From Acidimicrobiia bacterium (GTDB lineage: Bacteria; Actinomycetota; Acidimicrobiia; ATN3; PSLF01): 64,000 bases of DNA. Of this stretch, positions 4,505-51,946 are shown piece by piece. The position numbers were made by a program, and so were the translations under genes. Where the stretch lies: assembly GCA_040289475.1 (NCBI GenBank), contig PSLF01000008.1, positions 21,224 through 85,223 on the forward strand. Direction: 5' to 3'. How positions within the stretch are numbered: position 1 is the stretch's first letter; each line of letters begins with the position of its first letter. A model generated the notes under the pieces. It was not told where the DNA came from. It did not search any database and saw only the letters and a list, made by a program, of their open reading frames with translations.

Positions 4505-6035
4505 AAAACCCAAAGAGCAAAGCAGAGCGCGCCGACCTTCGGAACGAGCGATTCGAGAACTGAATCGGCGAGCAGATCCGAGCTGCGCCAGTTTTTCCGG
4601 AGCCAAGTACAGCCCCCTACCTTACTCTGCCTCGGAGAGCCCAGTTACCGACGGCGGCCATCCGCTCGCCCGCCATGGTGCAGAAGTCCCAGCGGCCGTT
4701 CGACGGGTTTTTTCAGTCCCAAGTCGTGAGAGTGGGAGAGAGTTGCTCAACGGGGCTGAGGTAGGTATGCGCTCTTCGTCGAAACCTGCAATGCTGAATT
4801 ATGGTAGGAACAGTGGGGACATGTCGGTCGAGCCGTTTCCTGTCAGGACGGAAGTGGTAGCCAAAGAAGTAGCAGGGACTACTGCTTCGCCCGTTGCTAA
4901 CGGAAGCTTTACATCGAAGGAATATAAGAGAACTGCACAAACCACCGAGGCGATACCTTCCCGAGCGAGCCGCGACCATTTCCAAACTCCCCGTGTGTCC
5001 GTCGAGTTACCTAGGCATAGAAGCCTCAAAGCCCTGATAGCAATCCTGGCTGCTTTGTTCGTGATAGTTGGTAGTACGGCCTTGGCCGGGACCTATCTAG
5101 TCAAACTCGCAGCCGGAGGCTCGTCCCCTGGGCACGGAGAGGTCGTCTTCACAGTAGCCGATGGCCAAAGCCTCTCCGAGATTTCTGAGAGTCTGGAGAA
5201 AGAGGGCATTATCTCATCGTCGACTTCGTTTTTACTTTATTTGCGTCTGAGCCGAAAGTCTCCTGTGGTAAGAGCAGGTGAGTACCGGATGCGCTACGGC
5301 ATGGGAGCCGAGGCGGTATTGGCCGTCTTCGAAGCCGGCCCTCAGGTTCGGTACAAAGACCTCACATTTGTGCCTGGTCTAACGGTACGACAACAAGCTT
5401 CCAGGGTAGAGTCCGATCTCGGGCTTTCTGGAGAGAAGTTTGCTTACGCGTTGAACTCGAACGTTGATCTAGCCGGCTTTCCCGATGCTCCTAATGCCGA
5501 AGGGCTTTGCTTTCCCGACACCTATCGGGTGGATGCCAATACCAAAGAGCCAGACCTTGCCTCCAGGTGCCTTCGGCACTTCGACGACGTTTTCTCAGCA
5601 TTGGATAAGTCCAGACTTTCCTCACTGGGGGTGACGAAGTACCAAATCGTCATCGTGGCTTCGCTAATCGAGCGGGAGGCAAAATTAGATTCGGAGAGAC
5701 CACTAATCGCTAGTGTCATCTACAATCGGCTCCGCCGGGGGATGAAACTAGACATAGATGCAACTGTTCTTTACGCAATGGGTGAGCACAAAGAGCGTTT
5801 AACTTACAAGGATTTGGAGATCGATTCGCCCTACAACACCTACAAAAATCCGGGCCTTCCGCCTACGCCGATCGCTACCCCCTCCAGAGCGGCACTCGAG
5901 GGAGCGCTCAACCCTGCCAACACTGATTACCTGTACTACGTCTTGACCGATCCATCGGGGGTGCACGCTTTTACCTCGAGCGCATCCGAGTTCGAGCGCC
6001 TCAAGGCGGACGCCATATCTCGTGGCGTTTTCTGA
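4464..6035 (+). CDS. mltG: Endolytic murein transglycosylase MltG (YceG family) with long disordered N-terminal extension
   Basis: C-terminal YceG domain with conserved YNTYKNPGLPPTPIA motif; single TM helix (ALIAILAALFVIVGSTALAG); the ~190-aa N-terminal low-complexity region makes the start codon uncertain. Confidence 0.85.
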   Translation: MQLERAEDLEDRPRKPKEQSRARRPSERAIRELNRRADPSCASFSGAKYSPLPYSASESPVTDGGHPLARHGAEVPAAVRRVFSVPSRESGRELLNGAEVGMRSSSKPAMLNYGRNSGDMSVEPFPVRTEVVAKEVAGTTASPVANGSFTSKEYKRTAQTTEAIPSRASRDHFQTPRVSVELPRHRSLKALIAILAALFVIVGSTALAGTYLVKLAAGGSSPGHGEVVFTVADGQSLSEISESLEKEGIISSSTSFLLYLRLSRKSPVVRAGEYRMRYGMGAEAVLAVFEAGPQVRYKDLTFVPGLTVRQQASRVESDLGLSGEKFAYALNSNVDLAGFPDAPNAEGLCFPDTYRVDANTKEPDLASRCLRHFDDVFSALDKSRLSSLGVTKYQIVIVASLIEREAKLDSERPLIASVIYNRLRRGMKLDIDATVLYAMGEHKERLTYKDLEIDSPYNTYKNPGLPPTPIATPSRAALEGALNPANTDYLYYVLTDPSGVHAFTSSASEFERLKADAISRGVF

Positions 6036-6978
6036 CCGTCAAAACACATTCAAACGGTCGGCGCCTGAAAGGGTGCTCGGCATCATTGGTTACCCACTAG
6101 AACACACCTTGTCTCCTGCCATGCATAACGCTGCATTTGCGGTCTCGGGTCTTGACTGGGTTTACGCTGCTTTCAGGGTTCCTCCCGGCTCTGCTTCAGC
6201 GGCAGTGGAGGCAATGAGAGTTTTAGGACTCGGTGGGCTGTCCGTAACAATTCCTCACAAGGAAGAGGTGCTATCTGCATTGGACGTTCTCGAGCCCGAG
6301 GCGCAAGCGATCGGGGCAGTCAACACAGTTTTCTGGACACCGGATCGAGACCAGCTGGTGGGGGCCAACACCGATGTAGAAGGATTCGAGAAAGGTCTAA
6401 AGACTGCCCTGGGAATCAACCTTGAGGGACGGAGCGTGGTAATAATTGGAGCCGGAGGTTCCGCTCGGGCCGTACTTTGGGCGGCCGTTACCCGAGGTGC
6501 CCGACACATCACTGTTCTTGCTCGAACGCCTTCTCGGGCCTCGCGAATGGTGCGCAGAATTTGCGAGTCTGCGTTCGCGATGTTACCTTCCCGGACCCCG
6601 CCGCCAATCGAGATCTGTTCTATGGACGGCTCGTTGATTGAGGAAGCATTGAGCAATGCTGACTTGATGGTGAACGCAACGCCTCTCGGATCGGACGGCA
6701 CCTCCCTCCCGGTGCCAGAAAGCGCAATTCACGACCGACTTTACGTCTTTGACTTGGTATATTTCCCCTCTAAAACCCCACTCGTACAGGCTGGGATACG
6801 TCGAGGTGCCGGTGCGGCTGGCGGACTGGAGATGCTAATTCTCCAAGGCGCTCGGCAATTCGAGATTTGGACTGGGCGGCCTGCTCCCGTCAGCGCAATG
6901 AAAAGAGCAGCAGAGGAGTCGCTCCGAGCGAGCCTTCAGATTCGCACTTCGACTGCCGAGATAGATCGATTGGAGTAA
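6022..6978 (+). CDS. aroE: Shikimate dehydrogenase
   Basis: GIIGYPLEHTLSPAMHNAAF motif, Rossmann motif GAGGSARAV. Confidence 0.92.
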   Translation: MAFSDRQNTFKRSAPERVLGIIGYPLEHTLSPAMHNAAFAVSGLDWVYAAFRVPPGSASAAVEAMRVLGLGGLSVTIPHKEEVLSALDVLEPEAQAIGAVNTVFWTPDRDQLVGANTDVEGFEKGLKTALGINLEGRSVVIIGAGGSARAVLWAAVTRGARHITVLARTPSRASRMVRRICESAFAMLPSRTPPPIEICSMDGSLIEEALSNADLMVNATPLGSDGTSLPVPESAIHDRLYVFDLVYFPSKTPLVQAGIRRGAGAAGGLEMLILQGARQFEIWTGRPAPVSAMKRAAEESLRASLQIRTSTAEIDRLE

Positions 6979-7567: not shown

Positions 7568-8881
7568 ATGGCACTTCAGGGAAGCCTGGATGATTTTGCC
7601 CTAGACGCCGTTTTTGATCTAGTAGCGAGAGCGCAGAACAGCGGGGCTCTTCACTTGAGAGGAGCCGGTAAAAAGGGTCGTGGGGCGGTCTACTTTCAAA
7701 AGGGAGAGATTTACTACGCCTACTCCAAGGGCAGTGACAATCTCGGTAATGCTTTGGTCAGGTCTGGTCTCGTTACGGCAAACGACTGGAAAGCTGCGAC
7801 AGCACAGGCGGGCGCCAAGCGTTCTATCGGTGAAATCCTGATTAGCAAGGGCGTAGATCGCACTAGGCTCGAGGACTTTCTTCGCGAGCGGATAGAAGAG
7901 GCAGTCTTCGATTTGTTCCGATGGGAGCAGGGTCGCTTCGATTTTCGCAAGGGGGAGACACACGCTATAGGTCCTGTAGTGACCCTCGAAGTAGATCCCC
8001 TTATTCAAGAAGCGCAACGCAAACTTGACGAGTGGGAAACTATCAAAGAAGCGATTCCTTCTGTCGAGGTCATCGTCCGTTTGGTGCGCGACCTCCCGGA
8101 GGAACAACTCGAGGTCAACCTCACGCGGGAGGACTGGCGCGTCATCGCTTGCATAGATGGACAACGGCGGGTGGTGGACGTCGCCGAAGCCTTGGGTGAG
8201 GGCGAGTTCAAGGTGTGTCAAGTGCTCCACAATTTGGTGACAGGTGGATTGGTCGAGGTTATTGAATCCGCTGCTAGCGAAGAAGAGTACGGAGAAGAGG
8301 AAGTAGAAGAACTCGAAGCAGAAGAGGCCGAGGAGTACGAGGAAGAAGAGGAGTACGAAGAAGAGGAGGAGGAGGAAGAAGAAGAGGAAGAGGGGATTGC
8401 GCTCGAAGGTATTTCGCTGAAGGAAGCGGCCGAGGCGCTCACGGTCGAAGAAAGCTCCGAGGAGAGCTTTGTTGGGGCTGGGTCGGCTTTCGAATCACTG
8501 AAGGCCGACACTGCAAACGACGATGGGAGCAGCCTCTTAGATGACCTTCTGGGCTTTGGTGACGAAGGGCGCCGAGGTGCATCCCCGCAGGCGTCTGCTT
8601 CTGGGAGTGGTCCGAGGAGGAGGCTCGATACCGGGGCCATCGCGGAGGAGTTCAGTCAACTTTGGTCTGGAGAGGATGCCCCCTCTGGTGGTGGTCCCCG
8701 AAACGAAGCACCCAAGTCCCCCAGACTGCGCTCGAGAGCTAGAGGCGGTGCCGAGCCTGCTATCGAGGTGCCCGAGGAGCTAGAGTCGGATCAGAGCGAG
8801 AATGCTCAGCCAGGCATCAAATCTGCTGGGGTAAACAAAGCTTTGATTATGCGCCTTATCCACGGGGTGCGGGAGTTGTAG
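7568..8881 (+). CDS. DUF4388 (PATAN-type) domain protein with long acidic Glu-rich linker and disordered C-terminus
   Basis: N-terminal GSLDDFALDAVFDLVARAQNSGALHLRG ... GAVYFQKGEIYYAYS is the DUF4388/PATAN signature; followed by EEEYEEEEEEEEE low-complexity tract. Confidence 0.75.
   Translation: MALQGSLDDFALDAVFDLVARAQNSGALHLRGAGKKGRGAVYFQKGEIYYAYSKGSDNLGNALVRSGLVTANDWKAATAQAGAKRSIGEILISKGVDRTRLEDFLRERIEEAVFDLFRWEQGRFDFRKGETHAIGPVVTLEVDPLIQEAQRKLDEWETIKEAIPSVEVIVRLVRDLPEEQLEVNLTREDWRVIACIDGQRRVVDVAEALGEGEFKVCQVLHNLVTGGLVEVIESAASEEEYGEEEVEELEAEEAEEYEEEEEYEEEEEEEEEEEEGIALEGISLKEAAEALTVEESSEESFVGAGSAFESLKADTANDDGSSLLDDLLGFGDEGRRGASPQASASGSGPRRRLDTGAIAEEFSQLWSGEDAPSGGGPRNEAPKSPRLRSRARGGAEPAIEVPEELESDQSENAQPGIKSAGVNKALIMRLIHGVREL
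8278..8392 (+). repeat. GAA/GAG-rich simple-sequence tract encoding a poly-Glu linker
   Basis: gaagaagaggag... run encoding EEYEEEEEYEEEEEEEEEEEE inside the PATAN gene. Confidence 0.8.
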
Positions 8882-8884
8882 GAA

Positions 8885-9472
8885 ATGTCACGGAGCACCG
8901 GTGGAGCCACCTCCGTCAAGGTGGTGGTCACCGGGCCCTTTGCGGCCGGCAAGACTACCTTTATCAGTACTCTCTCAGAGGTTCCTCTTTTCTCGACTGA
9001 GAAGCCTGTGACGGACGAGTCTCGGTCGGTGAAGTCAATGACCACTGTGTCGATGGACTTCGGCAAGATCACTTTCGACTTTGACGAGGGCGACATAGTC
9101 CTCTACCTCTTTGGGACTCCAGGGCAAGAACGTTTCGATTTCATGTGGGATGTTCTGGCCCGCGGAATGTTGGGCTTTGTGGTACTCGTCGATGTGACAC
9201 GCGAGAACACGTACCCGGAGGCGAAGAAGATTGTCAAGTACTTCACCGAGCTCTCCGACGTTCCCTATGTAATAGGTGCAAATCGAGCAACGGGAAATGC
9301 CAAGGCAGTATCGCGTTTGAAGAAGAAGCTGGGCGTAAGTGACGACATTCCAGTTGTACCCTGCGAGGTGGTTAGCCGCCAAAGCGCAAAAGAGGTTCTT
9401 CTTGCGCTCCTTTATAGGGTGAGCGAGTTGTTGGATCGACAGCGGGCGATAGGGGCGTCGTCACCTCGGTAG
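8885..9472 (+). CDS. Small Ras-like GTPase (MglA/CvnD-type ATP/GTP-binding protein)
   Basis: P-loop GPFAAGKTT, switch II FGTPGQERF, NKxD-like VIGANRA; begins 4 nt after the PATAN gene. Confidence 0.85.
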   Translation: MSRSTGGATSVKVVVTGPFAAGKTTFISTLSEVPLFSTEKPVTDESRSVKSMTTVSMDFGKITFDFDEGDIVLYLFGTPGQERFDFMWDVLARGMLGFVVLVDVTRENTYPEAKKIVKYFTELSDVPYVIGANRATGNAKAVSRLKKKLGVSDDIPVVPCEVVSRQSAKEVLLALLYRVSELLDRQRAIGASSPR

Positions 9473-9564: not shown

Positions 9565-10836
9565 GTGATAGGAACGAGGAGGGCGGCGGGCACGTTGGAA
9601 AGTAATACCTATGGTCAAACTCCTGACGAACACTCAGAAGGAGTGCCACAACGCCGGCACGTCCAGCCTGGCCGAGGACTCCAAAGGGGCGCTGGACGAA
9701 TCCGATCGAGTCTGAGAAAGCTGTTCGGTCGCCGCGAGCGTGCCCAACATGCTGTTGAGGACGAATGGTACATTCCCCCCGAGTACCAAACTAGTTGGCA
9801 AGGACCGTCCGCCGAGATTCTCTCCGAGCCAGATACCCATTTGCATTCTCCAAGTCAATGGATCCTTCCCTCTCCGACCGAGGAGTCTTTGAGGAGAGCA
9901 GAAGAGAGGGGATTTGTAACGGCTGCAGGACTCTCGAGTCGGAGCGGGATCTCTAGCGAAGAGCCGTATCGTCTATCGCAACCGGTCATTGATGAAACTG
10001 AGATTTCCCAGCCTCGCTTCGTCTCCAAAGAGCCCGAGTCGTCGGCCGGCCTTCCCGAGTGGGTGATATCTGAATACGTCGAGAGCGAGGCAGCAATACC
10101 GTCGGCTCCTAAGGTTCTACCTCCCCAAACCGAGCCAGATGATAAAGGGGTTTCCGGTGGCGTGCCCTCTCCAAAAGAGGGTGGGGACGCAAGCTTTACG
10201 ATCGTCGAGCACAGCACCGAGCCGATAGGAGGCTACCTAGCCGACCTGGGCTTAGAGCAGGGCCAACGACGGCCGGTGGCCGAACAGCCGCCTCCAGCCC
10301 CCGATGAGTATCGCTTTTCGAAACAACCCGACAGAGATACTTTGGAGGCGGTCTACCTACCCGCGGCTCCCCCCGAGCCGCTCCCGGGAACGGAGGATGC
10401 CTTCGGCTCCGTGGAACAGCCTGCTCCCCCGGAGCCTCCGCCCCCGCCTCCTATAGCCGTGGCGAAGTCCACAGGCTCATTCGAGGCAGTCGATGAAAAA
10501 AAACCCACCCAACCTTCAGCACTGAGCGCCTCGAGCGCAGGCAAAGACAGAGCTGCGTCGGGTGGAAGAATTGGTCAAAAGTTGCACGGACCTCCGGCGT
10601 TTGCAGCGGAACCAGATATACGCCATGTAGTCCTTGGATTCAAGGATGGGACGGCCGTTTTCTTGGAGCCTGAGCATCCCCTCTTTTCGTTGTTCTTCCA
10701 ATGGAGCGAGCTGGTAGCCGGCCCCGAGACGCCACCCAAGGCCTACGCAAGGAGGCAGGCTCAGCACAAGATTTATCTGGGCAAGCCGCCGAGGGGAAAG
10801 CCCAAAAAATCTATGAAGAAAAAGGCGGGTGGTTGA
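9565..10836 (+). CDS. Proline-rich hypothetical protein with Lys-rich C-terminal tail
   Basis: 423-aa ORF, very Pro/Glu/Ser-rich (PAPPEPPPPPPIAVAK); ends KPPRGKPKKSMKKKAGG; no recognisable domain; co-oriented between the GTPase and pilB. Confidence 0.5.
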   Translation: MIGTRRAAGTLESNTYGQTPDEHSEGVPQRRHVQPGRGLQRGAGRIRSSLRKLFGRRERAQHAVEDEWYIPPEYQTSWQGPSAEILSEPDTHLHSPSQWILPSPTEESLRRAEERGFVTAAGLSSRSGISSEEPYRLSQPVIDETEISQPRFVSKEPESSAGLPEWVISEYVESEAAIPSAPKVLPPQTEPDDKGVSGGVPSPKEGGDASFTIVEHSTEPIGGYLADLGLEQGQRRPVAEQPPPAPDEYRFSKQPDRDTLEAVYLPAAPPEPLPGTEDAFGSVEQPAPPEPPPPPPIAVAKSTGSFEAVDEKKPTQPSALSASSAGKDRAASGGRIGQKLHGPPAFAAEPDIRHVVLGFKDGTAVFLEPEHPLFSLFFQWSELVAGPETPPKAYARRQAQHKIYLGKPPRGKPKKSMKKKAGG

Positions 10837-11084: not shown

Positions 11085-12755
11085 GTGGCAGAAGAAGATG
11101 TCACTAGCTTCGGGATGCTTCTTGTCGAAGAGGGAATAATAGACGAGTCTCAGCTCGACGAAGTTTTGGCTGAGTACGAGGAGACAGGAAAACCTATCGG
11201 CCGCATCCTGATCGAAAAGGGGTTTCTTACCGAGGAAGACCTTCTGGCGGTTCTCGCCGATCAAGCAGGATTTGAGTTCGTAGACCTGAGTGAACACCCT
11301 GTAGATCCATCCGCAGCTGCCTTGATCCCTGACTCAATTTGCCGTCGTTATGGCCTTATCGCTATCGGATTCAACGGCGACAAGCTGGTTGTCGCCATGT
11401 CCGATCCTCAAAACGTCATTGCCCGCGATGACGTGAAGTCTATTTCCGGCAGAGACATCGAGATTGTTGTAGCCGCGCCCGGGGCAATTCTCGAGGCTTT
11501 GGACCGGATCTCGAGACTCGACACGGACATTGAGGCCTTCGCTGGCGAGCAAGAAGTTGAAGAAGATCTTTCGAAGCTGAAGGAGATAAGCGAGGACGCC
11601 CCCGCCGTCCGCTTCGTCAACATGGTGATTTCCCAGGCTGTCCAAGACAGGGCATCCGACATTCATGTCGAACCGCAAAACCGTGACGTGGTCATCCGGT
11701 ATCGCATAGATGGCGTCCTTAAAGAACACATGAGAAGCGGCAAGTCAATCCATCCAGCCATCATCAGCCGCTTGAAAATAATGGCGGACATGGATATCGC
11801 AGAGCACCGAATCCCCCAGGACGGACGCATTTCTATGAAGATTATGGGCCGAGAGATAGACATGCGCTGTTCGTGTGTGCCCACAGTGTGGGGGGAAAAG
11901 TTCGTGATGCGAATTCTTGACAAGCAAGCGGGCATTGTTTCTCTCGACAAGCTAGGTCTGCTTGAAGAAAATGCACGCAAGCTCCAGGCCGCTTATACAA
12001 AACCGTACGGGGCGATCTTTTGCTCGGGACCTACGGGCTCGGGAAAGACGACGACTTTGTACTCGATCCTCAAGGTGATCGCTTCTCCTGATAAAAACAC
12101 GGTCACTGTCGAGGACCCTGTCGAGTACAAGATTCCAGGCTTGAACCAGGTTCAAGTGAACGCGAAGGCCGGGCTTACGTTCGCCAATGCGCTGAGAGGA
12201 ATCGTACGAGGTGACCCCGACATCATCATGGTGGGCGAGATCCGAGACTTGGAGACCGCTCACATCGCCGTAGAGTCGGCTTTGACCGGCCACCTAGTGC
12301 TTTCGAGTATCCACACCAACGACGCGCCCTCTACCCCTGCTCGGCTCGTCGAGATGGGAGTGGAGCCCTACTTGGTAGGGTCGGCGCTGGACTGCGTGGT
12401 CTCCCAGCGCCTTGCCCGGCGCTTGTGCGAGCGCTGTAAGGAGCCGTACCAGCCGACCGAAGAGATGCTGGTTAACATAGGTTGGCCCCTCGAGGAGGAG
12501 CGGGAATTGCCCGTGCTCTATAAAGCGGTCGGATGCGGACACTGTTCGAAGACTGGATACAGAGGGCGAATTGCTCTCCATGAGATCATGTTAGTTACCG
12601 AAGAAATTGAGAGAATGGTTGTCGAGCGCAGGACTTCCGAGGAGATTAAGAAAGTCGCAGTGATGGAGGGGATGAAGCCCCTCCGACTCGACGGATTGGC
12701 CAAAGTACGGATGGGCATAACCACTCTTGACGAGGTCATGAGGGTAGTGGTCTAG
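11085..12755 (+). CDS. pilB: Type IV pilus assembly ATPase PilB (GspE family) with N-terminal T2SSE_N/MshEN-like domain
   Basis: Walker A GPTGSGKTT, Asp/His boxes, tetracysteine CERC...CGHC; N-terminal repeated LLVEEGIIDESQLDEVL / ILIEKGFLTEEDLLAVLADQ motifs. Confidence 0.93.
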   Translation: MAEEDVTSFGMLLVEEGIIDESQLDEVLAEYEETGKPIGRILIEKGFLTEEDLLAVLADQAGFEFVDLSEHPVDPSAAALIPDSICRRYGLIAIGFNGDKLVVAMSDPQNVIARDDVKSISGRDIEIVVAAPGAILEALDRISRLDTDIEAFAGEQEVEEDLSKLKEISEDAPAVRFVNMVISQAVQDRASDIHVEPQNRDVVIRYRIDGVLKEHMRSGKSIHPAIISRLKIMADMDIAEHRIPQDGRISMKIMGREIDMRCSCVPTVWGEKFVMRILDKQAGIVSLDKLGLLEENARKLQAAYTKPYGAIFCSGPTGSGKTTTLYSILKVIASPDKNTVTVEDPVEYKIPGLNQVQVNAKAGLTFANALRGIVRGDPDIIMVGEIRDLETAHIAVESALTGHLVLSSIHTNDAPSTPARLVEMGVEPYLVGSALDCVVSQRLARRLCERCKEPYQPTEEMLVNIGWPLEEERELPVLYKAVGCGHCSKTGYRGRIALHEIMLVTEEIERMVVERRTSEEIKKVAVMEGMKPLRLDGLAKVRMGITTLDEVMRVVV

Positions 12756-12775: not shown

Positions 12776-14434
12776 ATGGCAACTACAGCGGATAGACTCG
12801 GTCACTTCTTAGTGGAGAAGGGATTTATAAGCCCCGAGGAGCTTGCCGATGCTACGGCAAGAGCTCAGGCATCGAACACCCCCCTTCCTAGACTTCTTTT
12901 GCATGAAGGAAGACTCACCGAAAAGCAGCTTCTAATGGCAGTAGCTGCCCAAAACGGTATGCGTTTTTTCGACTTTGCTGCCGAGCCCATGCACCCCGAG
13001 GCAGTGGGAATGGTCCCGCCGGAGATATGCCACCGCTTCAACGTGATAGGTGTGGGCATAGAAGGCCAAAACCTTGTGCTGGCGATGGCGGATCCAAAGA
13101 ACTCCGATGCTATTCAGGCTGTCCAACAAGCGACGGGCTGGATGGTGACCCCATGTCTCGCTGACAAAAACGAGGTCAATGCCGCCATAAAGCAGGTTCA
13201 TGGAGGTATACCGCCTGGCGGTGTAGATGGACGGCCCGGTGCTGGGGGAACCTCCGGACGCCTCATGACCGGAGACGTCAAGCTCGGTGGAGCAGATGAT
13301 CGACTGATGGAAGCCGCCCGGGCGGTAAAAGAAGAAGCTCCACCCGTCCAGGTGCAGCGAAGCGCAGAGGACATTCACGTCAACGAGTTGTTGGAGATCG
13401 TTTTAGAGAGAGGCGCATCGGACTTGCACCTCACGGTTGGCGCTCATCCGACCGTGAGGATCCACGGCGACCTCCATCCGCTTACCGAGTTCCCGATTCT
13501 CAAGCCAGGCCCGCTGCGCAAGATGATCTACGCTATACTCACGCAAAAACAGCGCGAGAAGCTTGAGTCTGAGCTGGAACTGGACATGTCGCATCCCCTG
13601 CCGGGGAAAGCCCGTTTTCGTGTCAACGTCTTTTTCCAAAGGGACTCGATCGGCGCTGTGATGCGAGTCATACCGATGAACATTTTGCCCTTGGAGAAAC
13701 TCGGGCTTCCGCCAGTGTTGACGAGCTTCGCGTATCTACCGAGAGGACTCATACTCGTAACCGGACCCACCGGCTCCGGAAAGTCAACCACTCTCGCTTC
13801 AATCATCGACATCGTCAACCGAGAGCGTCCCGTCCACATCATGACTGTAGAAGATCCCATCGAGTTTCTTCACACCCACAAAAGGGCACTCGTAAACCAA
13901 AGAGAGGTCGGTGAGGACACACATAGCTTTGCTAGCGCTTTGAAGCGGGTACTACGCCAGGATCCAGACGTGATTCTGGTCGGCGAGATGCGCGATCTCG
14001 AAACGATTGCCACAGCCATAACTGCGGCCGAGACAGGCCACTTGGTCTTTGGAACTTTGCATACACAAGATGCTCCTCAATCGATTGACCGCATAATCGA
14101 CGTGTTCCCGCCCCATCAGCAGCAACAAGTCAGGGTTCAGCTAGCCTCCTCGCTTCAGGCGGTTTGTACCCAGCAGCTTCTTCAGACAGCCGATGGAAAG
14201 GGGAGAGTCGTAGCTTGCGAGGTCTTGATTTGTACGCCGGCGGTGCGAAACTTGATAAGAGAGGGCAAGACTCACCAGATCTACTCCGTCATGCAGGCCG
14301 GCGGGCGCTTTGGCATGCAGACTATGGACCAGTCGCTGGCGGATCTAGTAAAAGCTGGTCGTATAAGCCTAGACATGGCGCGAGAGCGGTGTGCAAACGA
14401 AGAAGATCTCATGAGGCTGTTGGGAAGGATCTAA
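12776..14434 (+). CDS. pilT: Twitching-motility retraction ATPase PilT with extra ~190-aa N-terminal T2SSE_N/MshEN-like domain
   Basis: PilT core (Walker A GPTGSGKST, AVRNLIREG, GMQTMDQSL) with no Cys4 zinc site; preceded by RLGHFLVEKGFISPEELADA GspE-N-type domain. Confidence 0.9.
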   Translation: MATTADRLGHFLVEKGFISPEELADATARAQASNTPLPRLLLHEGRLTEKQLLMAVAAQNGMRFFDFAAEPMHPEAVGMVPPEICHRFNVIGVGIEGQNLVLAMADPKNSDAIQAVQQATGWMVTPCLADKNEVNAAIKQVHGGIPPGGVDGRPGAGGTSGRLMTGDVKLGGADDRLMEAARAVKEEAPPVQVQRSAEDIHVNELLEIVLERGASDLHLTVGAHPTVRIHGDLHPLTEFPILKPGPLRKMIYAILTQKQREKLESELELDMSHPLPGKARFRVNVFFQRDSIGAVMRVIPMNILPLEKLGLPPVLTSFAYLPRGLILVTGPTGSGKSTTLASIIDIVNRERPVHIMTVEDPIEFLHTHKRALVNQREVGEDTHSFASALKRVLRQDPDVILVGEMRDLETIATAITAAETGHLVFGTLHTQDAPQSIDRIIDVFPPHQQQQVRVQLASSLQAVCTQQLLQTADGKGRVVACEVLICTPAVRNLIREGKTHQIYSVMQAGGRFGMQTMDQSLADLVKAGRISLDMARERCANEEDLMRLLGRI

Positions 14435-14500: not shown

Positions 14501-15712
14501 GTGCCTGACACGTTTGTATATAAAGTGCGCGATTCTCAGGGCCAACTTATCGAGGGCGAACTGGCTGCAGACAATGCCACCGTTGTCACAGCCAAGCTAC
14601 GTGAGATGGGATACATACCCATCGAGATCTCCAAGAAACAAGAGGGCCTAAAGCGCGAGATCACGATCGGCGGCAACAAGGTCAAACTAAAGGACCTGGC
14701 GGTCTTTTCTCGCCAGTTTGCCACAATGATCAATTCGGGCCTGTCGCTTCTGCGATCGTTGAACATCCTGGCCGAGCAGACCGAGTCGAAGCCGCTGCGC
14801 GAAACCATAAGACAAGTGAGGGACGAGATAGAGGGAGGGGGGTCTCTGTCGTCAGCGCTTGCCAAGCATCCCAAGGTCTTCAACGACCTGTACGTCTCGA
14901 TGGTCCGCTCGGGAGAAACCGGCGGAAACCTCGATTTGGTTCTCTTGCGGCTAGCTGAGACGATCGAAAAGCAGGTGGCACTGAGAAGCGAGATCAAGTC
15001 AGCCATGACTTATCCGGTCGTGGTGTTCGTGATGGTCGTACTGATAGTCACGGCGATGCTGATCTTCATAGTGCCCATGTTCGAGAACCTCTACAAAGAG
15101 CTGGGAGGCACGCTGCCAGCTCCGACGAGGATTTTGATCGGTGTTTCCAACCTCATAAAGAGCTTATGGTGGCTGGTGATTCTCCTTGGCGTAGGGGCGT
15201 TCTTCGGACTGAGGGCGTGGAAGAAAACCGAGTCGGGTCGAATGATCTTCGACTCTTTCAAGATCAAGGTTCCAGTGTTCGGACCGCTCTTTCACAAGGT
15301 GGCCCTTTCCCGCTTTTCAAGAACCCTCTCGGATCTCATACGATCGGGTGTGCCTATCTTGGAAAGCTTGGACATTGTGTCGGGAACGGTGAACAACGCA
15401 GTGGTCTCCAAGGCAATCCTCGCTGTCCAAGAGAGCGTGAAGAGCGGCGAGAGTATTGCGAGGCCTCTCCTAGAGCACTCGGTCTTCCCACCGATGGTAG
15501 TGCAGATGATCGCCGTTGGAGAGGAGACAGGCGCCTTGGACACTATGCTCACCAAAATAGCTGACTTTTATGATCAAGAAATTGAGGCTACGGTACAGGC
15601 ACTCACTTCGCTCATCGAGCCAATCCTTATAGCAGTGATGGGCGCCGCTGTAGGGGGGATGGTTATTGCCTTGTACATGCCGATGTTCAACATCGTCAAC
15701 CTCATCAAGTAG
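14501..15712 (+). CDS. pilC: Type IV pilus platform protein PilC (GspF family)
   Basis: 403 aa, two GspF repeats, three TM segments. Confidence 0.92.
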   Translation: MPDTFVYKVRDSQGQLIEGELAADNATVVTAKLREMGYIPIEISKKQEGLKREITIGGNKVKLKDLAVFSRQFATMINSGLSLLRSLNILAEQTESKPLRETIRQVRDEIEGGGSLSSALAKHPKVFNDLYVSMVRSGETGGNLDLVLLRLAETIEKQVALRSEIKSAMTYPVVVFVMVVLIVTAMLIFIVPMFENLYKELGGTLPAPTRILIGVSNLIKSLWWLVILLGVGAFFGLRAWKKTESGRMIFDSFKIKVPVFGPLFHKVALSRFSRTLSDLIRSGVPILESLDIVSGTVNNAVVSKAILAVQESVKSGESIARPLLEHSVFPPMVVQMIAVGEETGALDTMLTKIADFYDQEIEATVQALTSLIEPILIAVMGAAVGGMVIALYMPMFNIVNLIK

Positions 15713-15837: not shown

Positions 15838-16383
15838 ATGATGTGGCTCAGAAAAGACCTAAAGGGTAAAGACGAGGGCTTTACCTTGATCGAGCTGATG
15901 GTGGTGGTGCTGATCATTGCAATACTTATCTCCATCGCCATCCCGACGTTTTTGGGAGCCCGGCGTCGTGCCCAGAACCGTGCGGCTCAGTCGAACCTGC
16001 GCAACGCACTAACGACGGAGAAGACCTACTACGTCGACACCCAGCGCTACACCGATGTCCCGGCGCAGCTCCAGCAAGTGGAGAACTCGCTGCTCTGGGT
16101 GAACAACGCTACGGTCAATTCCACTAACTGCGCAGCCGCTCAGCGTCGGGTATGTGTTGCAATCCAAAACATACTGACGACTGTAGCCGCAGCCTACAAC
16201 GGCGGAACAGCGGCTGCTTCCGGGAACAACTACAACCTCGGTGACGAGGCGATAAGTGGTGGATCGGGAGCAGGAACATGGTATGCCTGCAACGACGGCT
16301 CAGCTGACCTCAACATCGGTCCTTTACCTGGAGCAGTCGCCGGAGCAAGCCAAGACCAAAACCAAGGTTGGATGTGCTCTTAG
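15838..16383 (+). CDS. pilA: Type IVa major pilin (prepilin with class III signal peptide)
   Basis: Leader MMWLRKDLKGKDEG / FTLIELMVVVLIIAILISIAIP (Gly-1, Phe+1, Glu+5); C-terminal Cys pairs for a D-region disulfide. Confidence 0.9.
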   Translation: MMWLRKDLKGKDEGFTLIELMVVVLIIAILISIAIPTFLGARRRAQNRAAQSNLRNALTTEKTYYVDTQRYTDVPAQLQQVENSLLWVNNATVNSTNCAAAQRRVCVAIQNILTTVAAAYNGGTAAASGNNYNLGDEAISGGSGAGTWYACNDGSADLNIGPLPGAVAGASQDQNQGWMCS

Positions 16384-16528: not shown

Positions 16529-17362
16529 TTGAATTCTTTCCAGGACTGGACGATCGTCGTTTTTTGGACGCTTGTGGGATTGATTTTTGGTTCGTTCGTC
16601 AACGTGATCGTAACGAGGGTCCCAGAAGGGCGGTCGATCGTTCATCCACCGTCTCGGTGTCCCCACTGCCTGGCACCCATAGGTTTTTGGGAGAACATCC
16701 CAATTATCTCTTACTTTTTTTTAGGTGGTAGGTGTAGGCACTGCAAAGAGCCGATCGGATGGAGGTACCCCGCTACCGAAGCTGGGGTAGCCGTTGCCTT
16801 CGGCGTCGTGGTCTGGAGGCTGTGGGTGACAGCCAACAGGCCTGCGGCTGCGATTCTCGTTATGGCAGCTACAGTCGTCTTTGTCTCGGTAGCGATCATA
16901 GACGCCAAGACAAAGCGCATTCCTCGGAAGCTCGTGTACTGGGGACTGGTCATGGTGATCCCCTTGAGCGTAGTCGTAGCTCTCTATGAAGCACGCCCTG
17001 CGGCGTTGATTATTGCACTGGCTTCCTCGATGGGTTATGGGATCGCATTGTTTGCGATCCACAGCATCGATCCACGGTGGATGGGCTTTGGAGATGTACG
17101 CTATGCCTTTTTCCTAGGTTGGGTGTTGGGATACTTCGGGTGGTGGTATCCGCTCGCTGGCTTTATGCTGGCATTGGTAATTGGAAGTGTCGTGGGGCTT
17201 ACGCTTGTCGCAGTAGGCAAGAGCCGATTGGGAAAAACTATTCCCTTTGGCCCGTTTCTTTCTCTTGGGGCCTATGCGGTACTTCTGTGGGGTTGCGAGC
17301 TTGCCGGCTTGTATCTACACCTCATGGGTCTTCCCCTTGCAGGATGCCGAACGTTACCCTAA
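16529..17362 (+). CDS. pilD: Prepilin peptidase / N-methyltransferase (A24 family)
   Basis: N-terminal CPHC...CRHC zinc motif; multi-TM A24 peptidase core with catalytic Asp region (GFGDVRYAFFLG). Confidence 0.9.
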   Translation: MNSFQDWTIVVFWTLVGLIFGSFVNVIVTRVPEGRSIVHPPSRCPHCLAPIGFWENIPIISYFFLGGRCRHCKEPIGWRYPATEAGVAVAFGVVVWRLWVTANRPAAAILVMAATVVFVSVAIIDAKTKRIPRKLVYWGLVMVIPLSVVVALYEARPAALIIALASSMGYGIALFAIHSIDPRWMGFGDVRYAFFLGWVLGYFGWWYPLAGFMLALVIGSVVGLTLVAVGKSRLGKTIPFGPFLSLGAYAVLLWGCELAGLYLHLMGLPLAGCRTLP

Positions 17363-17703: not shown

Positions 17704-17931
17704 TTGACTCGAAGCGAGTGGGTTTTGTCAAGAGCAGAAGTACCACCAAAGGTCGAGTTACTGACCGTGCGGGAGGTCGCAGGGCTCACCCGGGTCTCGA
17801 CCATGACGGTGTATCGGCTAATCAAACGGGGAGAGCTTCCGGCGGTGAGAGTAGGTCGCTCTTACAGAATTCGGAGGCAAGATTTGATCCGCTATTTGCT
17901 TAGCTCTTCTACCGCAGAGGAGAGGTCGTAG
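17704..17931 (+). CDS. Helix-turn-helix DNA-binding protein (excisionase/MerR-like HTH_17 family)
   Basis: LLTVREVAGLTRVSTMTVYRLIKRGELPAVRVGRSYRIRRQDL is a typical HTH_17 motif; stop overlaps the pilM start; true start probably internal (VELLTVREV). Confidence 0.7.
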   Translation: MTRSEWVLSRAEVPPKVELLTVREVAGLTRVSTMTVYRLIKRGELPAVRVGRSYRIRRQDLIRYLLSSSTAEERS

Positions 17932-18992
17932 TGCCAAAGACTGTTGTCGGCCTTGATATCGGCACCTCGTCGGTGAGGGGTGTCGAGATACGCATCGGAA
18001 AAGACCGCCCCGTGTTGGTACGCATAGCTCAGCAAGAGATGGCTCCCGGATCGACTCGTGAGGGTGAAATTGTCAATCCGCCTGCAGTCGGAGACGCAAT
18101 CTCGAGGTTGTGGAAGTCGGGAAAGTTCAAAGGCAAGGACGCTGTCGTAGTCGGGGTGGCCAACGCGAAAGTAGTGGTGCGTCAAGTCGAGTTGCAGTGG
18201 ATGCCAGAAGAGGAGTTGCGCAACGCCTTGGCGTTCCAAATCCAAGAGTTCATTCCCATTCCGTTAGAGGAAGCGATCATTGACTACATGCCGGTAGAAG
18301 AGGTGTATCCAGGCGAGGGGCAGCGCCTCTTACGGATTTTAGTAGTAGCTGCTCAAAAAGAGATGATCCAGTCATTGATAGAGACGTTGCAGTATGCAAA
18401 GCTTCAACCTGCCGTCATAGACCTAAACGCGCTGGCTCTAATGAGGTCTCTGGTGAGCATGTACGGACTTGAAGAGCCACCGCCCGCCGAGGCACTCGTC
18501 GACATTGGCGCAGGCATTACGAACGTTGTAGTACACGAGCAAACCAAACCCCGCTTCGTGAGAATCATCGCCGGCGGGGGCGACGACTTTACTGCAGCAA
18601 TCTCCGAGCAGCTGGGCGTAGATCCAATCAGTGCAGAGCAGATCAAAAGAGAGATAGGTGCTTCGGGGTCTGCTCCTCCTGGCTACGATCGCGCGATGGA
18701 CGTGATCGAAGAAAAAACGGCCTCTTTTGTTGACGAGATTCGCGGATCCCTCGACTTTTATATGGCCCAGCCCGATGCCCAGCCGATCTCTCGAGTTGTC
18801 CTCTCTGGAGGAGGCTCGCAGCTTAGGACGATTCCAGATCGGTTACGCTCCGCCTTAGGGATCCCTGTCGAACAGGGGCATCCTCTTCAGTACGTTGAGC
18901 TTGCCGATCTTGGCATGCACCCTGAGCAGTTGGCCTCGATAGAGCCTTATCTGGCAGTTCCTGTAGGTCTGGCCTTGAGCGAGGCGGTCTGA
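17931..18992 (+). CDS. pilM: Type IV pilus assembly protein PilM (actin-like ATPase fold)
   Basis: VVGLDIGTSSVRGVEI N-terminus, 353 aa. Confidence 0.88.
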   Translation: MPKTVVGLDIGTSSVRGVEIRIGKDRPVLVRIAQQEMAPGSTREGEIVNPPAVGDAISRLWKSGKFKGKDAVVVGVANAKVVVRQVELQWMPEEELRNALAFQIQEFIPIPLEEAIIDYMPVEEVYPGEGQRLLRILVVAAQKEMIQSLIETLQYAKLQPAVIDLNALALMRSLVSMYGLEEPPPAEALVDIGAGITNVVVHEQTKPRFVRIIAGGGDDFTAAISEQLGVDPISAEQIKREIGASGSAPPGYDRAMDVIEEKTASFVDEIRGSLDFYMAQPDAQPISRVVLSGGGSQLRTIPDRLRSALGIPVEQGHPLQYVELADLGMHPEQLASIEPYLAVPVGLALSEAV

Positions 18993-49919: not shown

Positions 49920-50501
49920 ATGCCGCCAGACAAATATGCTTCCAAGGGCCTCAAGAGAGCGGCTTATTTGTCGGAAACTGCGCGCAGGATGACCGCTGCT
50001 GACTGCGCGGGTATCCGTGTAGGAATAGTGGCGGCCAGATGGAACTTCCGAGTCACCGAGAAGCTGTTATATGGGGCTAGAGCCGCTCTAGCGAGCGTAG
50101 GTATTGACCTGAATGACCGGTCTAGATGCATCTTGGTATGGGTGCCTGGGGCATTCGAGATTCCGATAGCGGTTGCTAAGGTGATAGAGCTTGAGCGGGT
50201 TCATGCTGTCGTAGCTCTCGGATGCGTCGTAAGGGGAGATACTGACCACTACCACTACGTTGCCTCGGCTGCTTCCTATGGATTACAAGAGGTGTCTTTG
50301 AGAACAGGGGTGCCAGTGGCCTTCGGCGTTTTGACCACTTACGACATGGACCAGGCCTTGGCAAGAGCTGCTGACAGTGTCGAGTCCAATAAAGGCTTCG
50401 AGGCAGCTACGGCAGCGTTGGAGATGATCCTTACGTTGAGGGAACTCGGAGGGAGCGACTCTAAATCCATTTGGCGTCACCTAAGGTGCCACAGGACCTA
50501 A
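49920..50501 (+). CDS. ribH: 6,7-dimethyl-8-ribityllumazine synthase
   Basis: GIRVGIVAARWN ... VVALGCVVRGDTDHYHYV; an alternative start at ATG 49989 would give a more typical 171 aa. Confidence 0.9.
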   Translation: MPPDKYASKGLKRAAYLSETARRMTAADCAGIRVGIVAARWNFRVTEKLLYGARAALASVGIDLNDRSRCILVWVPGAFEIPIAVAKVIELERVHAVVALGCVVRGDTDHYHYVASAASYGLQEVSLRTGVPVAFGVLTTYDMDQALARAADSVESNKGFEAATAALEMILTLRELGGSDSKSIWRHLRCHRT

Positions 50502-51946
50502 GCGCCTCCGCCACGTCGATGAGGAGGAGGCGGAACTGGAGACTCCGCGGATGCTTGTACAACCTCGTGAGACCCTTCGCCTTCTGCGCTTTGCAAGCCG
50601 TCACTTCGTCGATCGGATCGGCTTCGGCCGTCCTTTCTCGCTCTCCGAGGCCGCGACGCGGTACCGCTTTCAGGCCGCGAGCGGGAAGACTCATCGGTAT
50701 CTAGCGAGTTCAACTGCTCTAGGAGATGGGGGGATGCGGCTGATATTTCGAGAGAAGGCATCCCTACTCCCGGCACATAGCTCTCGGCAACCGGGGCGTG
50801 CTCCACATCCGAAACTAATACGGGGCGGCCGACTCTCCCTCTTCCTGCTTCTTTCGCCTCGTAAAGACTAGTGTCCGCTGCCGCCATGACTGCGCTAGCT
50901 GTGGCGGCTCCTTTGCCCGGATAGCACCCGATTCCGATCGTGCAAGAGATGGGTATGTCCCCCCAACTTGTACGTACCGGTGTTTGCTTGAAGCACTCTA
51001 GGATTCGTGCTGCGACACGTTCAGCTACATCTGTTGTGGCAGCCTTGACTGCGGCGGCGAACTCGTCTCCGCCCATTCGTCCGACCAAATCACCTGTCCG
51101 AAGACAAGAGGCTATTCTCTCGGACGCGGCTCTCAGGACAGCATCTCCAGCCTGGTGTCCGTATGTGTCATTGATGTCCTTGAAATAGTCTAAGTCGATC
51201 TCTAGATAGCCGAGCCCCTGCCCCGCAGATCGGGCTTCCAAGAGCGCGTTTTCCAAAGCATCCTCGAAGTTGCGGCGGTTCATTACACGTGTAAGGTGGT
51301 CGAAGCTGGAAAGAAAGTTCATTTTGCGCATAGCGTCTTCCATGCGCTGGCGGGCTTCGCCTTCTGCAACGAGGAGTTTGAAGTTCATGTCGGCTACAGC
51401 CTGAACGAGGAAGCAAGTCCCTAAAAGTACAAGCATTTCAGCAATGAACTCTCGCCATTCTTTGGCGTTAGCAATCCCAAATCCCCGAGCCATCGCGCCT
51501 GCAACAACAAGCCCCAGTGTCACGGTAACCTGTGGTCCCGAAAGCGGGCGGAGAAGGATTCCTACAATAATTGTGTGAAACGCGGTAAACAGAACTGTCT
51601 GTTTGCCAAAGACCACGATCAACGCAAAGAAAAACGCCAAGGTAAAGTAGTGGATGTATGTGAGCGCGTAAAGGCGCGGAAGAGATATCACGCTGGATCT
51701 GGACGCTAGAAAAATAATGATCAAGCTTCCAACTAGCATGGAGCGGAGGACCCAAACCTTACTGGGATCCTGAATTGGCTGGAAGAGGTCGAGCAAGAAA
51801 GACGCAATGACCATCACTATCGAAATGCCGAGAGCCAGCTGGCTTCGGTAGCGCATGAGCTTTATGTGATCGGGGAATGCCTCTTCAGTGGGGAAGAGAC
51901 GTTCTCCGAGAGTCAGCTCTTCAGCAGTTTCCCAGGGTCTTGTCAT
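50498..51946 (-). CDS. Membrane-anchored diguanylate cyclase (GGDEF) with disordered C-terminal tail
   Basis: Only minus-strand gene; ~6 N-terminal TM helices, then GGDEF domain with intact RMGGDEF active site and RxxD-type region; convergent with ribH (4-nt overlap). Confidence 0.88.
   Translation of the reverse strand: MTRPWETAEELTLGERLFPTEEAFPDHIKLMRYRSQLALGISIVMVIASFLLDLFQPIQDPSKVWVLRSMLVGSLIIIFLASRSSVISLPRLYALTYIHYFTLAFFFALIVVFGKQTVLFTAFHTIIVGILLRPLSGPQVTVTLGLVVAGAMARGFGIANAKEWREFIAEMLVLLGTCFLVQAVADMNFKLLVAEGEARQRMEDAMRKMNFLSSFDHLTRVMNRRNFEDALENALLEARSAGQGLGYLEIDLDYFKDINDTYGHQAGDAVLRAASERIASCLRTGDLVGRMGGDEFAAAVKAATTDVAERVAARILECFKQTPVRTSWGDIPISCTIGIGCYPGKGAATASAVMAAADTSLYEAKEAGRGRVGRPVLVSDVEHAPVAESYVPGVGMPSLEISAASPHLLEQLNSLDTDESSRSRPESGTASRPRRARKDGRSRSDRRSDGLQSAEGEGSHEVVQASAESPVPPPPHRRGGGA

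Follow-up and report, generated by a model that had tools for sequence, protein, structure and literature searches.

A PilT-type ATPase with an N-terminal MshEN domain and a partly remodelled putative cyclic-di-GMP site in Acidimicrobiia

The DNA analysed here is a 64,000-nucleotide stretch of contig PSLF01000008.1 of an Acidimicrobiia bacterium (the whole stretch is called the window below), and the subject is the pilT gene of its type IV pilus cluster. This gene was found to encode a three-part protein, in which an MshEN/GSPII domain (residues 1-145) is joined by a disordered linker (146-199) to a PilT core (200-552). The fusion is genuine and was inherited across one lineage of Actinomycetota, mainly Acidimicrobiia. 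By analogy with homologous motors, it was proposed with about even confidence that the MshEN domain of PilT is a docking or regulatory module. It would act chiefly as a handle of the PilB-type N1 kind and would bind cyclic-di-GMP (c-di-GMP) weakly at best. The parts of the gene are located as follows.

12776..14434, + strand: MshEN-PilT fusion gene, an ATG-start open reading frame (ORF) of 552 amino acids (aa), with Pfam MshEN and T2SSE, TIGR01420 at 493 bits and NF053729 at 42.7 bits
12785..12952, + strand: MshEN_N four-helix bundle, residues 4-59, with the putative c-di-GMP site; AlphaFold helices 4-14, 20-33, 37-43 and 49-59, predicted local distance difference test (pLDDT) 93-95; NF053729 at 7-59
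12956..13210, + strand: MshEN_C / T2SSE_N1 alpha-beta subdomain, residues 61-145; PF05157 at 61-141, E=3.9e-13; pLDDT 95-97
13211..13372, + strand: Gly/Pro/Ala-rich disordered linker, residues 146-199; pLDDT <50 at 149-194; mean identity 0.21; length 16-62 residues in homologues
13373..14431, + strand: PilT core, N2 domain and C-terminal ATPase domain; Walker A GPTGSGKS, AVRNLIREGK; TIGR01420 at 202-543

An earlier sequence-only reading of the window had claimed an extra N-terminal MshEN-like domain on PilT, and PF05157, NF053729, the PDB search and Foldseek all agreed with it. The Pfam MshEN model PF05157 gave a significant MshEN/T2SSE_N match at the PilT N-terminus (residues 61-141, E=3.9e-13, 49.6 bits with a gathering score of 23.1), followed by T2SSE at 202-478. 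The NCBIfam model NF053729 'c-di-GMP_motif' was aligned over positions 1-53 of 53 to residues 7-59 and scored 42.7 bits (cutoff 38). When residues 1-200 were searched against PDB sequences, the matches included Thermus thermophilus PilF across three GSPII domains (E=1.1e-30, with 58 bits for GSPII-C by itself), Vibrio cholerae MshE (5HTL, E=1.7e-8) and several N-domains of PilB. In the full-length AlphaFold model the N-domain had a pLDDT of 93-97 with its alpha/beta part ending at residue 142, the linker was below 50 at 149-194, and the core was confident. The top 20 PDB matches of a domain-only AlphaFold model (pLDDT 88) in Foldseek were all MshEN/GSPII domains, the best being 5HTL, that is, V. 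cholerae MshE with c-di-GMP (E=1e-10). It was concluded that PilT residues 1-145 are a full MshEN/GSPII module. An older PF05157 model left out the first three helices, which hold the ligand site (Wang 2016 supplement, PMC5013675), and, since the Pfam match in PilT covers only residues 61-141, that match by itself is uninformative about c-di-GMP.

The N-domain of PilT was aligned to that of its own PilB at 82 bits (37% identity over 114 residues), and to solved MshEN domains at 58 bits at most. Because it is closer to the neighbouring PilB N-domain than to any solved MshEN, a probable source of the PilT module is the 5' region of an actinobacterial pilB.

The spacing between the pilB stop codon and the pilT ATG is 20 nucleotides (nt), and a GGTGA/GAGAG Shine-Dalgarno-like stretch is present upstream of pilT. 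All strings quoted in the sequence-only reading were found in PilT (RLGHFLVEKGFISPEELADATARAQ at residues 7-31, AVRNLIREGK and FGMQTMDQSL in the core) and in PilB; the range 12776-13350 that it gave corresponds to residues 1-192, which are the MshEN domain and most of the linker. An annotation or assembly artefact would mean that the true PilT starts around residue 178-200, with either a separate gene ahead of it or a piece of pilB joined on by error. Two features would fit such an error: residue 178 is encoded by an in-frame ATG (nt 13307; window 13288-13309) with GGTGGAG ~12 nt upstream, and in a related locus, L056, the domain and the core lie in different frames. However, the 120 best homologues, which come from many independent assemblies, all had the one continuous ORF, the domain was in frame in 33 independent genomes, the N-terminus MATTADRLG was common to close relatives, the N-domain was folded confidently in the AlphaFold model, and L056 itself looks like an indel inside the linker. 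The probability of an artefact was judged close to negligible. Mis-called starts, which the sequence-only reading had named as a way in which its claim might fail, and erroneously fused genes were rejected on the shared homologue architecture, the aligned N-termini, the in-frame domains and the model confidence. The internal start at Met178 has a weak Shine-Dalgarno-like sequence at long spacing and lies within the unconserved linker; an extra short PilT isoform made from it beside the long form is possible.

The core was matched by TIGR01420 (PilT/PilU) at residues 202-543 and profile positions 2-342 of 343, with 493.4 bits (cutoff 319.1). The PilB model scored it at 221 bits. AVRNLIREGK and GPTGSGKS were present and the PilB-type CxxC pairs were absent, and Foldseek superposed the core on Geobacter PilT4 (6ojx) with 54% identity, a target-normalised template modelling (TM) score of 0.92 and a root-mean-square deviation of 2.3 A. 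Judged by these matches, residues 200-552 are a bona fide PilT-type retraction ATPase core. The same holds in comparison with the canonical PilTs of Pseudomonas aeruginosa (3JVV), G. metallireducens (PilT4, 6OJX) and T. thermophilus (PilT2, 5FL3): the core is 50-55% identical to theirs with a TM score of 0.9, they likewise have Walker A and an AIRNLIREGK motif, and the window pilT likewise sits between pilB and pilC. In contrast, canonical PilTs are ~350 aa long and begin with the N2 domain, whereas 199 N-terminal residues, MshEN and linker, are added in the window PilT.

The sequence-only reading had called this fusion unusual for PilT, and the solved proteins bear it out: they start at the N2 domain, and the PilT/PilU chains among the Foldseek matches have 317-361 residues each. 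In PilT4 the N2 domain spans residues 1-100 and the C-terminal domain 101-353, and an N1 domain (MshEN/GSPII) was described as a PilB feature (PMC6858323). The two-domain layout of ~350 aa without N1 that is typical of the PilT family was not found in the 552-aa window protein; the extra N1 domain is the point of novelty and is no ground for exclusion from the family. Since N1 domains are otherwise typical of PilB/GspE, the protein might be taken for a second, PilB-like extension motor instead of a retraction motor, and V. cholerae PilT reportedly can promote MSHA pilus extension (PMC9815625). The excess of the PilT/PilU score over the PilB score, the PilT-specific AVRNLIREGK, the missing PilB tetracysteine motif, the superposition on PilT4 and a separate PilB encoded directly upstream all argue against such a role, which was considered highly improbable.

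The sequence-only reading had called for a survey of PilT homologues in related taxa. Among the 120 best matches in a 5.8-billion-protein collection, PF05157 and PF00437 were found in every sequence, and the length was 514-588 aa save for one partial sequence, which was 100% identical to the window PilT. All named homologues, the partial one included, were Acidimicrobiia or Acidimicrobiales metagenome-assembled genomes (MAGs), and the N-termini were aligned from residue 1. The identity to the window PilT was 0.41 and 0.39 in the N subdomains, 0.21 in the linker and 0.76 in the core; this profile reads as that of a folded, constrained, faster-evolving accessory domain on a flexible tether.

Further, GTDB was scanned at one genome per species with only the PilT core as the query, and the 80 closest loci (core identity 64-77%) were kept. 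The MshEN domain was in frame in 33 of them. In a midpoint-rooted neighbour-joining tree of the PilT cores, built with no support values, the window PilT was placed in a clade of 29 loci, mostly from Acidimicrobiia MAGs, and 27 of these were fused. The two exceptions were L056 (~5450-6100), where a frameshift in the linker puts the MshEN domain and the PilT core in different frames, through an indel in the assembly or because the gene really is split, and L024, a truly unfused PilT. Two smaller fused groups, which include a Nitriliruptoraceae MAG, were located outside the main fused clade, and with a tree lacking support the strict monophyly of the fusion was not established. Two large unfused groups, sister clades within Actinomycetota, shared the pilB-pilT-pilC context; one belonged to the class Actinomycetes and included the cultured Kineococcus and Quadrisphaera granulorum, and the other had short PilTs directly after pilB. 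Locus L052 was cut by a contig end, and in L068 (~330-1150) only the four-helix MshEN_N part was kept, with a long Pro/Ala-rich linker to PilT. The fused-PilT loci L023 and L029 were labelled as Burkholderiales and Acidobacteria MAGs and their PilT cores were grouped with Actinomycetota; the labels probably reflect mis-binning or mislabelling.

The c-di-GMP motif of MshEN domains is RLGxxhhxxGhhxxxxLxxxLxxQ, present twice with a 5-residue spacer between (Wang 2016, PMC5013675). Arg at position 1 stacks on guanine, Gln at position 24 bonds ribose and phosphate, guanine O6 and N7 are bonded by two backbone amides, those of Gly at position 3 and the residue after it, and Leu at positions 2, 17 and 21 build hydrophobic clusters, where single substitutions cost >10-fold (PMC5013675). 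In PilT the register was kept in a 53-residue unit with motif I at 7-30, the spacer at 31-35 and motif II at 36-59.

12794..12865, + strand: motif I, residues 7-30; RLG kept, T27 in place of Leu at position 21, A30 in place of Gln at position 24
12881..12952, + strand: motif II, residues 36-59; P-L-P in place of R-L-G, R46 at the hydrophobic position 11; L52, V56 and Q59 kept

The Gln of motif I is located one residue late, and P38 of motif II occupies position 3, where it offers no backbone amide for the guanine contact made by Gly. A relaxed form of the published pattern, [RKPN]hGxxhhxx[GAS]hhxxxxhxxxhxx[QNKRYWST], was applied as a regular expression and was matched by neither PilT half-motif. 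The claim that the extension fits the MshEN pattern was hence correct for the register and for the RLG of motif I, and it did not hold for T27, A30, P38 and R46 or for the relaxed pattern.

The conservation of the site was recorded in the 120 homologues. In motif I, Arg1 was R in 115, Leu2 was L or F in 118, Gly3 was G in 115, Leu17 was L in 115 and Leu21 was L or I in 112, and position 24 was E in 74, A in 25, S in 13, C in 7 and Q in none. In motif II, position 1 was P in 108, Leu2 was L in 118, Leu17 was L in 116, Leu21 was V or L in 113 and Gln24 was Q in 95, and position 3 was P in 64, S in 45, A in 8 and G in none. A score of about the NF053729 cutoff was reached by 31 of 59 family members. 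The deviations T27, A30, R46 and D6 (Arg in the family) are private to the window PilT. Read from the alignment, the pocket is half canonical and half remodelled: motif I keeps its RLG and motif II its Gln, along with the leucine clusters, and the Gly of motif II and the Gln of motif I are altered. The invariant loss of the motif II Gly argues against an MshE-like affinity. Because this Gly and the motif I Gln are altered family-wide and the four private deviations are added, c-di-GMP binding by the window PilT is expected to be weak (micromolar or worse) or absent, and physiologically relevant binding was considered rather unlikely.

The effects of comparable changes in other MshEN/GSPII domains have been reported. 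Replacing Gly with Ala at motif II position 3 lowered the affinity ~10-fold in a reconstructed subdomain of PilF GSPII-A, and in the full GSPII-A domain even a perfect consensus gave no binding, owing to the N-cap and inter-subdomain contacts (PMC12002112). The binding of XpsE was lost with a set of changes that included G40L (PMC5013675). The change of the last-position Gln to Glu in PilF GSPII-B moved the affinity from 6 nM to about 450-800 nM, ~100-fold, with binding persisting (PMC12207366). Sequence alone does not predict c-di-GMP binding of MshEN/GSPII domains (PMC12002112).

To assess the wider diversity of PilT architectures, 1.84 billion cluster representatives were scanned exhaustively with HMMER, and the best 150 PilT-core matches (P0121-P0270) were examined. 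More than 90 residues preceded the core in 75 of the 150. Among these extended PilTs, MshEN was present in 18-19, DUF4388/PATAN in 3 and HEAT repeats in 3, and most others had no Pfam domain in the extension, many of the extensions being proline-rich. DUF4388 was fused directly to the PilT core in three PilT-like representatives, and in several representatives of 708-741 aa the core was matched in two stretches, so that they look like PilT-PilT tandem fusions. TIGR01420 was the clear best model for 9 of 10 divergent MshEN-PilT representatives, and 5 of these 9 passed NF053729. The rarer metagenomic proteins P0194 and P0239 have near-canonical motifs in which the motif II Gly (position 3) is kept. 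When P0194 was used as a homology query, only a handful of metagenomic relatives were returned; its gene (L081, 4023-7596) has as neighbours an SMC gene and, in divergent orientation, a GAF-GGDEF gene, and it lies outside any pilB-pilT-pilC operon. P0161 was set aside as an intact-motif MshEN-PilT, as the PilB model outscored the PilT model and the protein looks hybrid. MshEN-PilT is a recurrent architecture, and some versions of it look like competent c-di-GMP receptors. The single Pfam label 'T2SSE' masks this diversity of PilT architecture beyond the usual 350-aa picture.

The fusion gene belongs to a type IVa pilus cluster on the + strand whose order is conserved: PATAN protein, small GTPase, pilB, pilT, pilC, pilin, prepilin peptidase, pilM. 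The other genes of the window that bear on the role of the domain are listed below.

7568..8881, + strand: DUF4388/PATAN-domain protein; Pfam DUF4388 E=1.3e-25; precedes pilB in many of the 80 related loci
8885..9472, + strand: small Ras/MglA-like GTPase; Pfam ATP_bind_1 E=9.8e-17, Ras E=7.7e-11; co-occurs with DUF4388 in related loci
9565..10836, + strand: proline-rich ORF of 423 aa between the GTPase gene and pilB; no Pfam/NCBIfam match; candidate cluster gene
11085..12755, + strand: probable PilB extension ATPase, 556 aa; Pfam T2SSE E=4.9e-133, MshEN E=3.2e-20; motif region at residues 8-60, nt 11106-11264
14501..15712, + strand: PilC platform protein; Pfam T2SSF E=7.7e-71, two repeats
15838..16383, + strand: type IV pilin; Pfam N_methyl E=2.7e-8
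16529..17362, + strand: prepilin peptidase; Pfam A24_N_bact E=2.5e-32 and Peptidase_A24
17931..18992, + strand: PilM, actin-like assembly protein and candidate N1 docking partner; Pfam PilM_2 E=8.2e-43
50498..51946, - strand: membrane GGDEF diguanylate cyclase; Pfam GGDEF E=1.8e-42; GGDEF at 292, RxxD (RTGD) at 283, six transmembrane-like segments

PilB has a GTG start, and its best match was TIGR02538 with 605.1 bits, under the equivalog cutoff of 675.65; two CxxC pairs were present, and NF053729 scored 61.8 bits. The sequence-only reading had noted two MshEN-like motifs on this protein, the strings of which lie at residues 9-28 and 38-60. The domain is present and motif II (PIGRILIEKGFLTEEDLLAVLADQ) matched the relaxed pattern, but motif I is imperfect (S8, F9, Y31). 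MshEN on PilB is a canonical architecture, and this half of the claim is ordinary. Among the related loci, PilB Gly3 was kept in 26/30 (motif I) and 19/30 (motif II) within the fused clade, and in 30/36 and 33/36 elsewhere, so that Gly3 of both motifs was kept far more often in PilB than in PilT across these loci. The Gln at motif II position 24 was kept in these PilBs, and position 1 was Gln, Pro or Ser, not Arg. No second canonical PilT was found in the 64-kb window, where tblastn with the PilT core and the N-domain gave one PilT and one PilB.

It was also claimed in the sequence-only reading that a membrane GGDEF cyclase is encoded at 50498-51946 and that both motors may be under direct c-di-GMP control. 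The first claim was confirmed by the Pfam match, the intact GGDEF and the six transmembrane-like segments, and the protein is probably an active diguanylate cyclase. As for the second, the MshEN domains of PilT and PilB and the GGDEF gene all exist, but the PilT site is altered and the GGDEF gene is unlinked, 36 kb away from the pil cluster; direct c-di-GMP control of the window PilT is a possibility rather than a well-grounded conclusion.

A direct receptor would bind c-di-GMP through the PilT MshEN domain at physiological concentrations, the messenger would gate retraction, and together with the PilB MshEN domain it would set the balance of extension and retraction. The features that would suit it are an NF053729 score over the cutoff, the correct register of two 24-residue units with a 5-residue spacer, the conserved R, L, G and leucine clusters of motif I together with Q59, a best fold match to MshE with c-di-GMP, the probably active cyclase in the genome, and the near-canonical P0194 and P0239 lineages, the former beside a GAF-GGDEF gene. 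However, the relaxed pattern failed in both half-motifs, neither the motif II Gly nor the motif I Gln was seen in any of the 120 homologues, T27 falls in a leucine cluster sensitive to single substitutions, Gly-to-Ala was costly in GSPII-A, and context outside the motif can abolish binding. The fold match does not discriminate either: in Foldseek the ligand binders (5HTL, 8PDK) and the non-binders (9G1W GSPII-A, 2D27 XpsE, Xanthomonas citri PilB-N) had similar scores. We regard a direct receptor in the window PilT as doubtful. A broader form of the same idea, in which MshEN-PilTs are an unrecognised class of retraction motors with direct second-messenger input, c-di-GMP binds both PilB and PilT in Acidimicrobiia and in rarer uncultured lineages with near-canonical MshEN-PilT motifs and sets the motor balance, and Acidimicrobiia use a remodelled second half-site, is entertained just as tentatively, at well under even confidence.

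The half-sites are unequal, with the RLG and leucine cluster of motif I kept, and the start of motif II is consistently P-L-(P/S), which looks like a conserved alternative rather than random decay. An intact motif I half-site beside a remodelled second one could mean that the domain senses another guanine-containing or cyclic nucleotide (e.g. pGpG, cGAMP or (p)ppGpp). MshEN domains were reported to be specific for c-di-GMP through the O6 and N7 contacts, however, and a conserved alternative sequence equally fits a protein-binding surface; the sensing of another nucleotide was considered improbable.

The docking or regulatory role of the domain was favoured. An N1 handle would direct PilT to the place at the pilus base that PilB reaches through its own N1 domain; N1 is believed to engage inner-membrane components. 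The candidate partners would be the inner-membrane PilM and PilC and/or the conserved PATAN-GTPase pair, so that the extension and retraction motors might be recruited, exchanged or brought into competition through one shared interface, and the nucleotide input to PilT would be at most weak. The Foldseek matches to the N-domain include PilB-N of X. citri in complex with PilZ (7LKM/7LKO) and the N1 domain of GspE in complex with GspL (4PHT, 2BH1). In the former (the PilB-PilZ-FimX complex) and in the latter the MshEN/N1 fold is a protein docking surface and not a direct sensor of nucleotides; these domains belong to extension or secretion ATPases. In the window the candidate counterpart of GspL is PilM. 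Cyanobacterial PATAN (DUF4388) proteins regulate the motor of type IV pili, and a PATAN protein is encoded in the window cluster too. In Synechocystis they bind the N-terminal part of PilB1 and PilC and not PilT1/PilT2, which lack N1 (bioRxiv 10.1101/2021.06.11.447907); the window PilT has N1 and by analogy could become a target. The three PilT-like representatives in which DUF4388 is joined to the PilT core also fit a docking role.

Several observations weigh against this proposal. The window PilT passed the NCBI curated c-di-GMP-motif model, and the residues conserved across the family, namely Arg1 and Gly3 of motif I (115 of 120 each) and Gln24 of motif II (95 of 120), are direct ligand contacts with no obvious structural role; the family consensus 'RRLGE' is as in a functional site. 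The conservation of the surface-exposed Arg1 and motif II Gln24 suggests that some ligand or partner contact is retained. With Pro at motif II position 1, PilF GSPII-C nevertheless binds at ~460 nM (PMC11731258), and Glu, the commonest residue at motif I position 24, may replace Gln when protonated (PMC12207366). Additionally, the docking role comes from homologues only, and the fused forms make up one large and two small groups in an unsupported tree.

The window PilT was also compared with MshEN-ATPases that bind c-di-GMP, namely V. cholerae MshE (5HTL), Myxococcus xanthus PilB and Clostridium perfringens PilB2. The fold of the N-domain and the 24+5+24 register are alike, and the architecture is the same as in MshE/PilB-type ATPases, with an N1 domain, a linker and a hexameric secretion ATPase. 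The window ATPase differs in being of the PilT type and in the Gly of motif II-3, the Gln of motif I-24 and the Leu of motif I-21. T. thermophilus PilF GSPII-A and GSPII-C (9G1W, 6EJF) are natural MshEN-fold domains with imperfect motifs too. GSPII-C, the best sequence match (58 bits), likewise starts a motif with Pro, and in its last motif position 3 is not Gly and position 11 is basic. In contrast to the window domain, the PilF domains sit on an extension ATPase; GSPII-C binds c-di-GMP and GSPII-A does not, and judged by sequence the PilT domain might function like either.

No description of an MshEN-PilT fusion was found in the freely searchable literature, including papers on MshEN, PilF-GSPII, monoderm type IV pili and ComFB and a PilB review, and the supplementary architecture table of the MshEN paper contained no PilT-type fusion. 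The literature places MshEN only on PilB/GspE and on non-ATPase partners, and the wording in 2025 was still 'at the N termini of PilB/GspE ATPases'. The databases already label homologues as 'PilT/PilU family' with PF05157 and PF00437. The architecture is thus recorded in databases but, within the literature searched, undiscussed.

The choice between the extension and retraction motors in the type IV pilus is an open question. The known c-di-GMP inputs act on PilB-type motors or accessory proteins, and PilT was described without an N1 domain. A lineage-wide PilT with the N1/MshEN domain of PilB is a natural experiment on platform docking, messenger sensing, or both. With binding retained, it would be the first case of a retraction motor under direct c-di-GMP gating; without it, the MshEN fold would have been reused as a motor-addressing module. 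Nearly all members of the Actinomycetota class in which the fusion was found are known here from MAGs, and studies of type IVa pili in Actinobacteria have so far dealt with those of the Tad/Flp type.

Some further features of the window were recorded. In many Actinomycetota loci, whether PilT is fused or unfused, the PATAN and small GTPase genes again lie as a pair upstream of pilB, which suggests a conserved polarity or motor-regulation module of actinobacterial type IVa pili. Residues 59-107 of the PATAN protein (window 7742-7888) contain a tandem helical insert, NLGNALVRSGLV... / SIGEILISKGV..., resembling the MshEN_N motif, with a sub-threshold NF053729 match (18.3 bits, E=0.0015). The tandem helical insert of PATAN has been described as an 'alpha-clip' that resembles the beginning of N1 domains. 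Behind the PATAN domain, the DUF4388 protein has a long acidic stretch of low complexity (EEEYGEEEVEELEAEEAEEYEEEEEYEEEEEEEEEEEEG; window 8300-8420). Across window 1-64000 the GC skew was positive in every 2-kb bin, the cumulative skew climbed steadily to 3.0 and the long ORFs were almost all on the + strand, which is consistent with a co-oriented leading-strand stretch of the chromosome.

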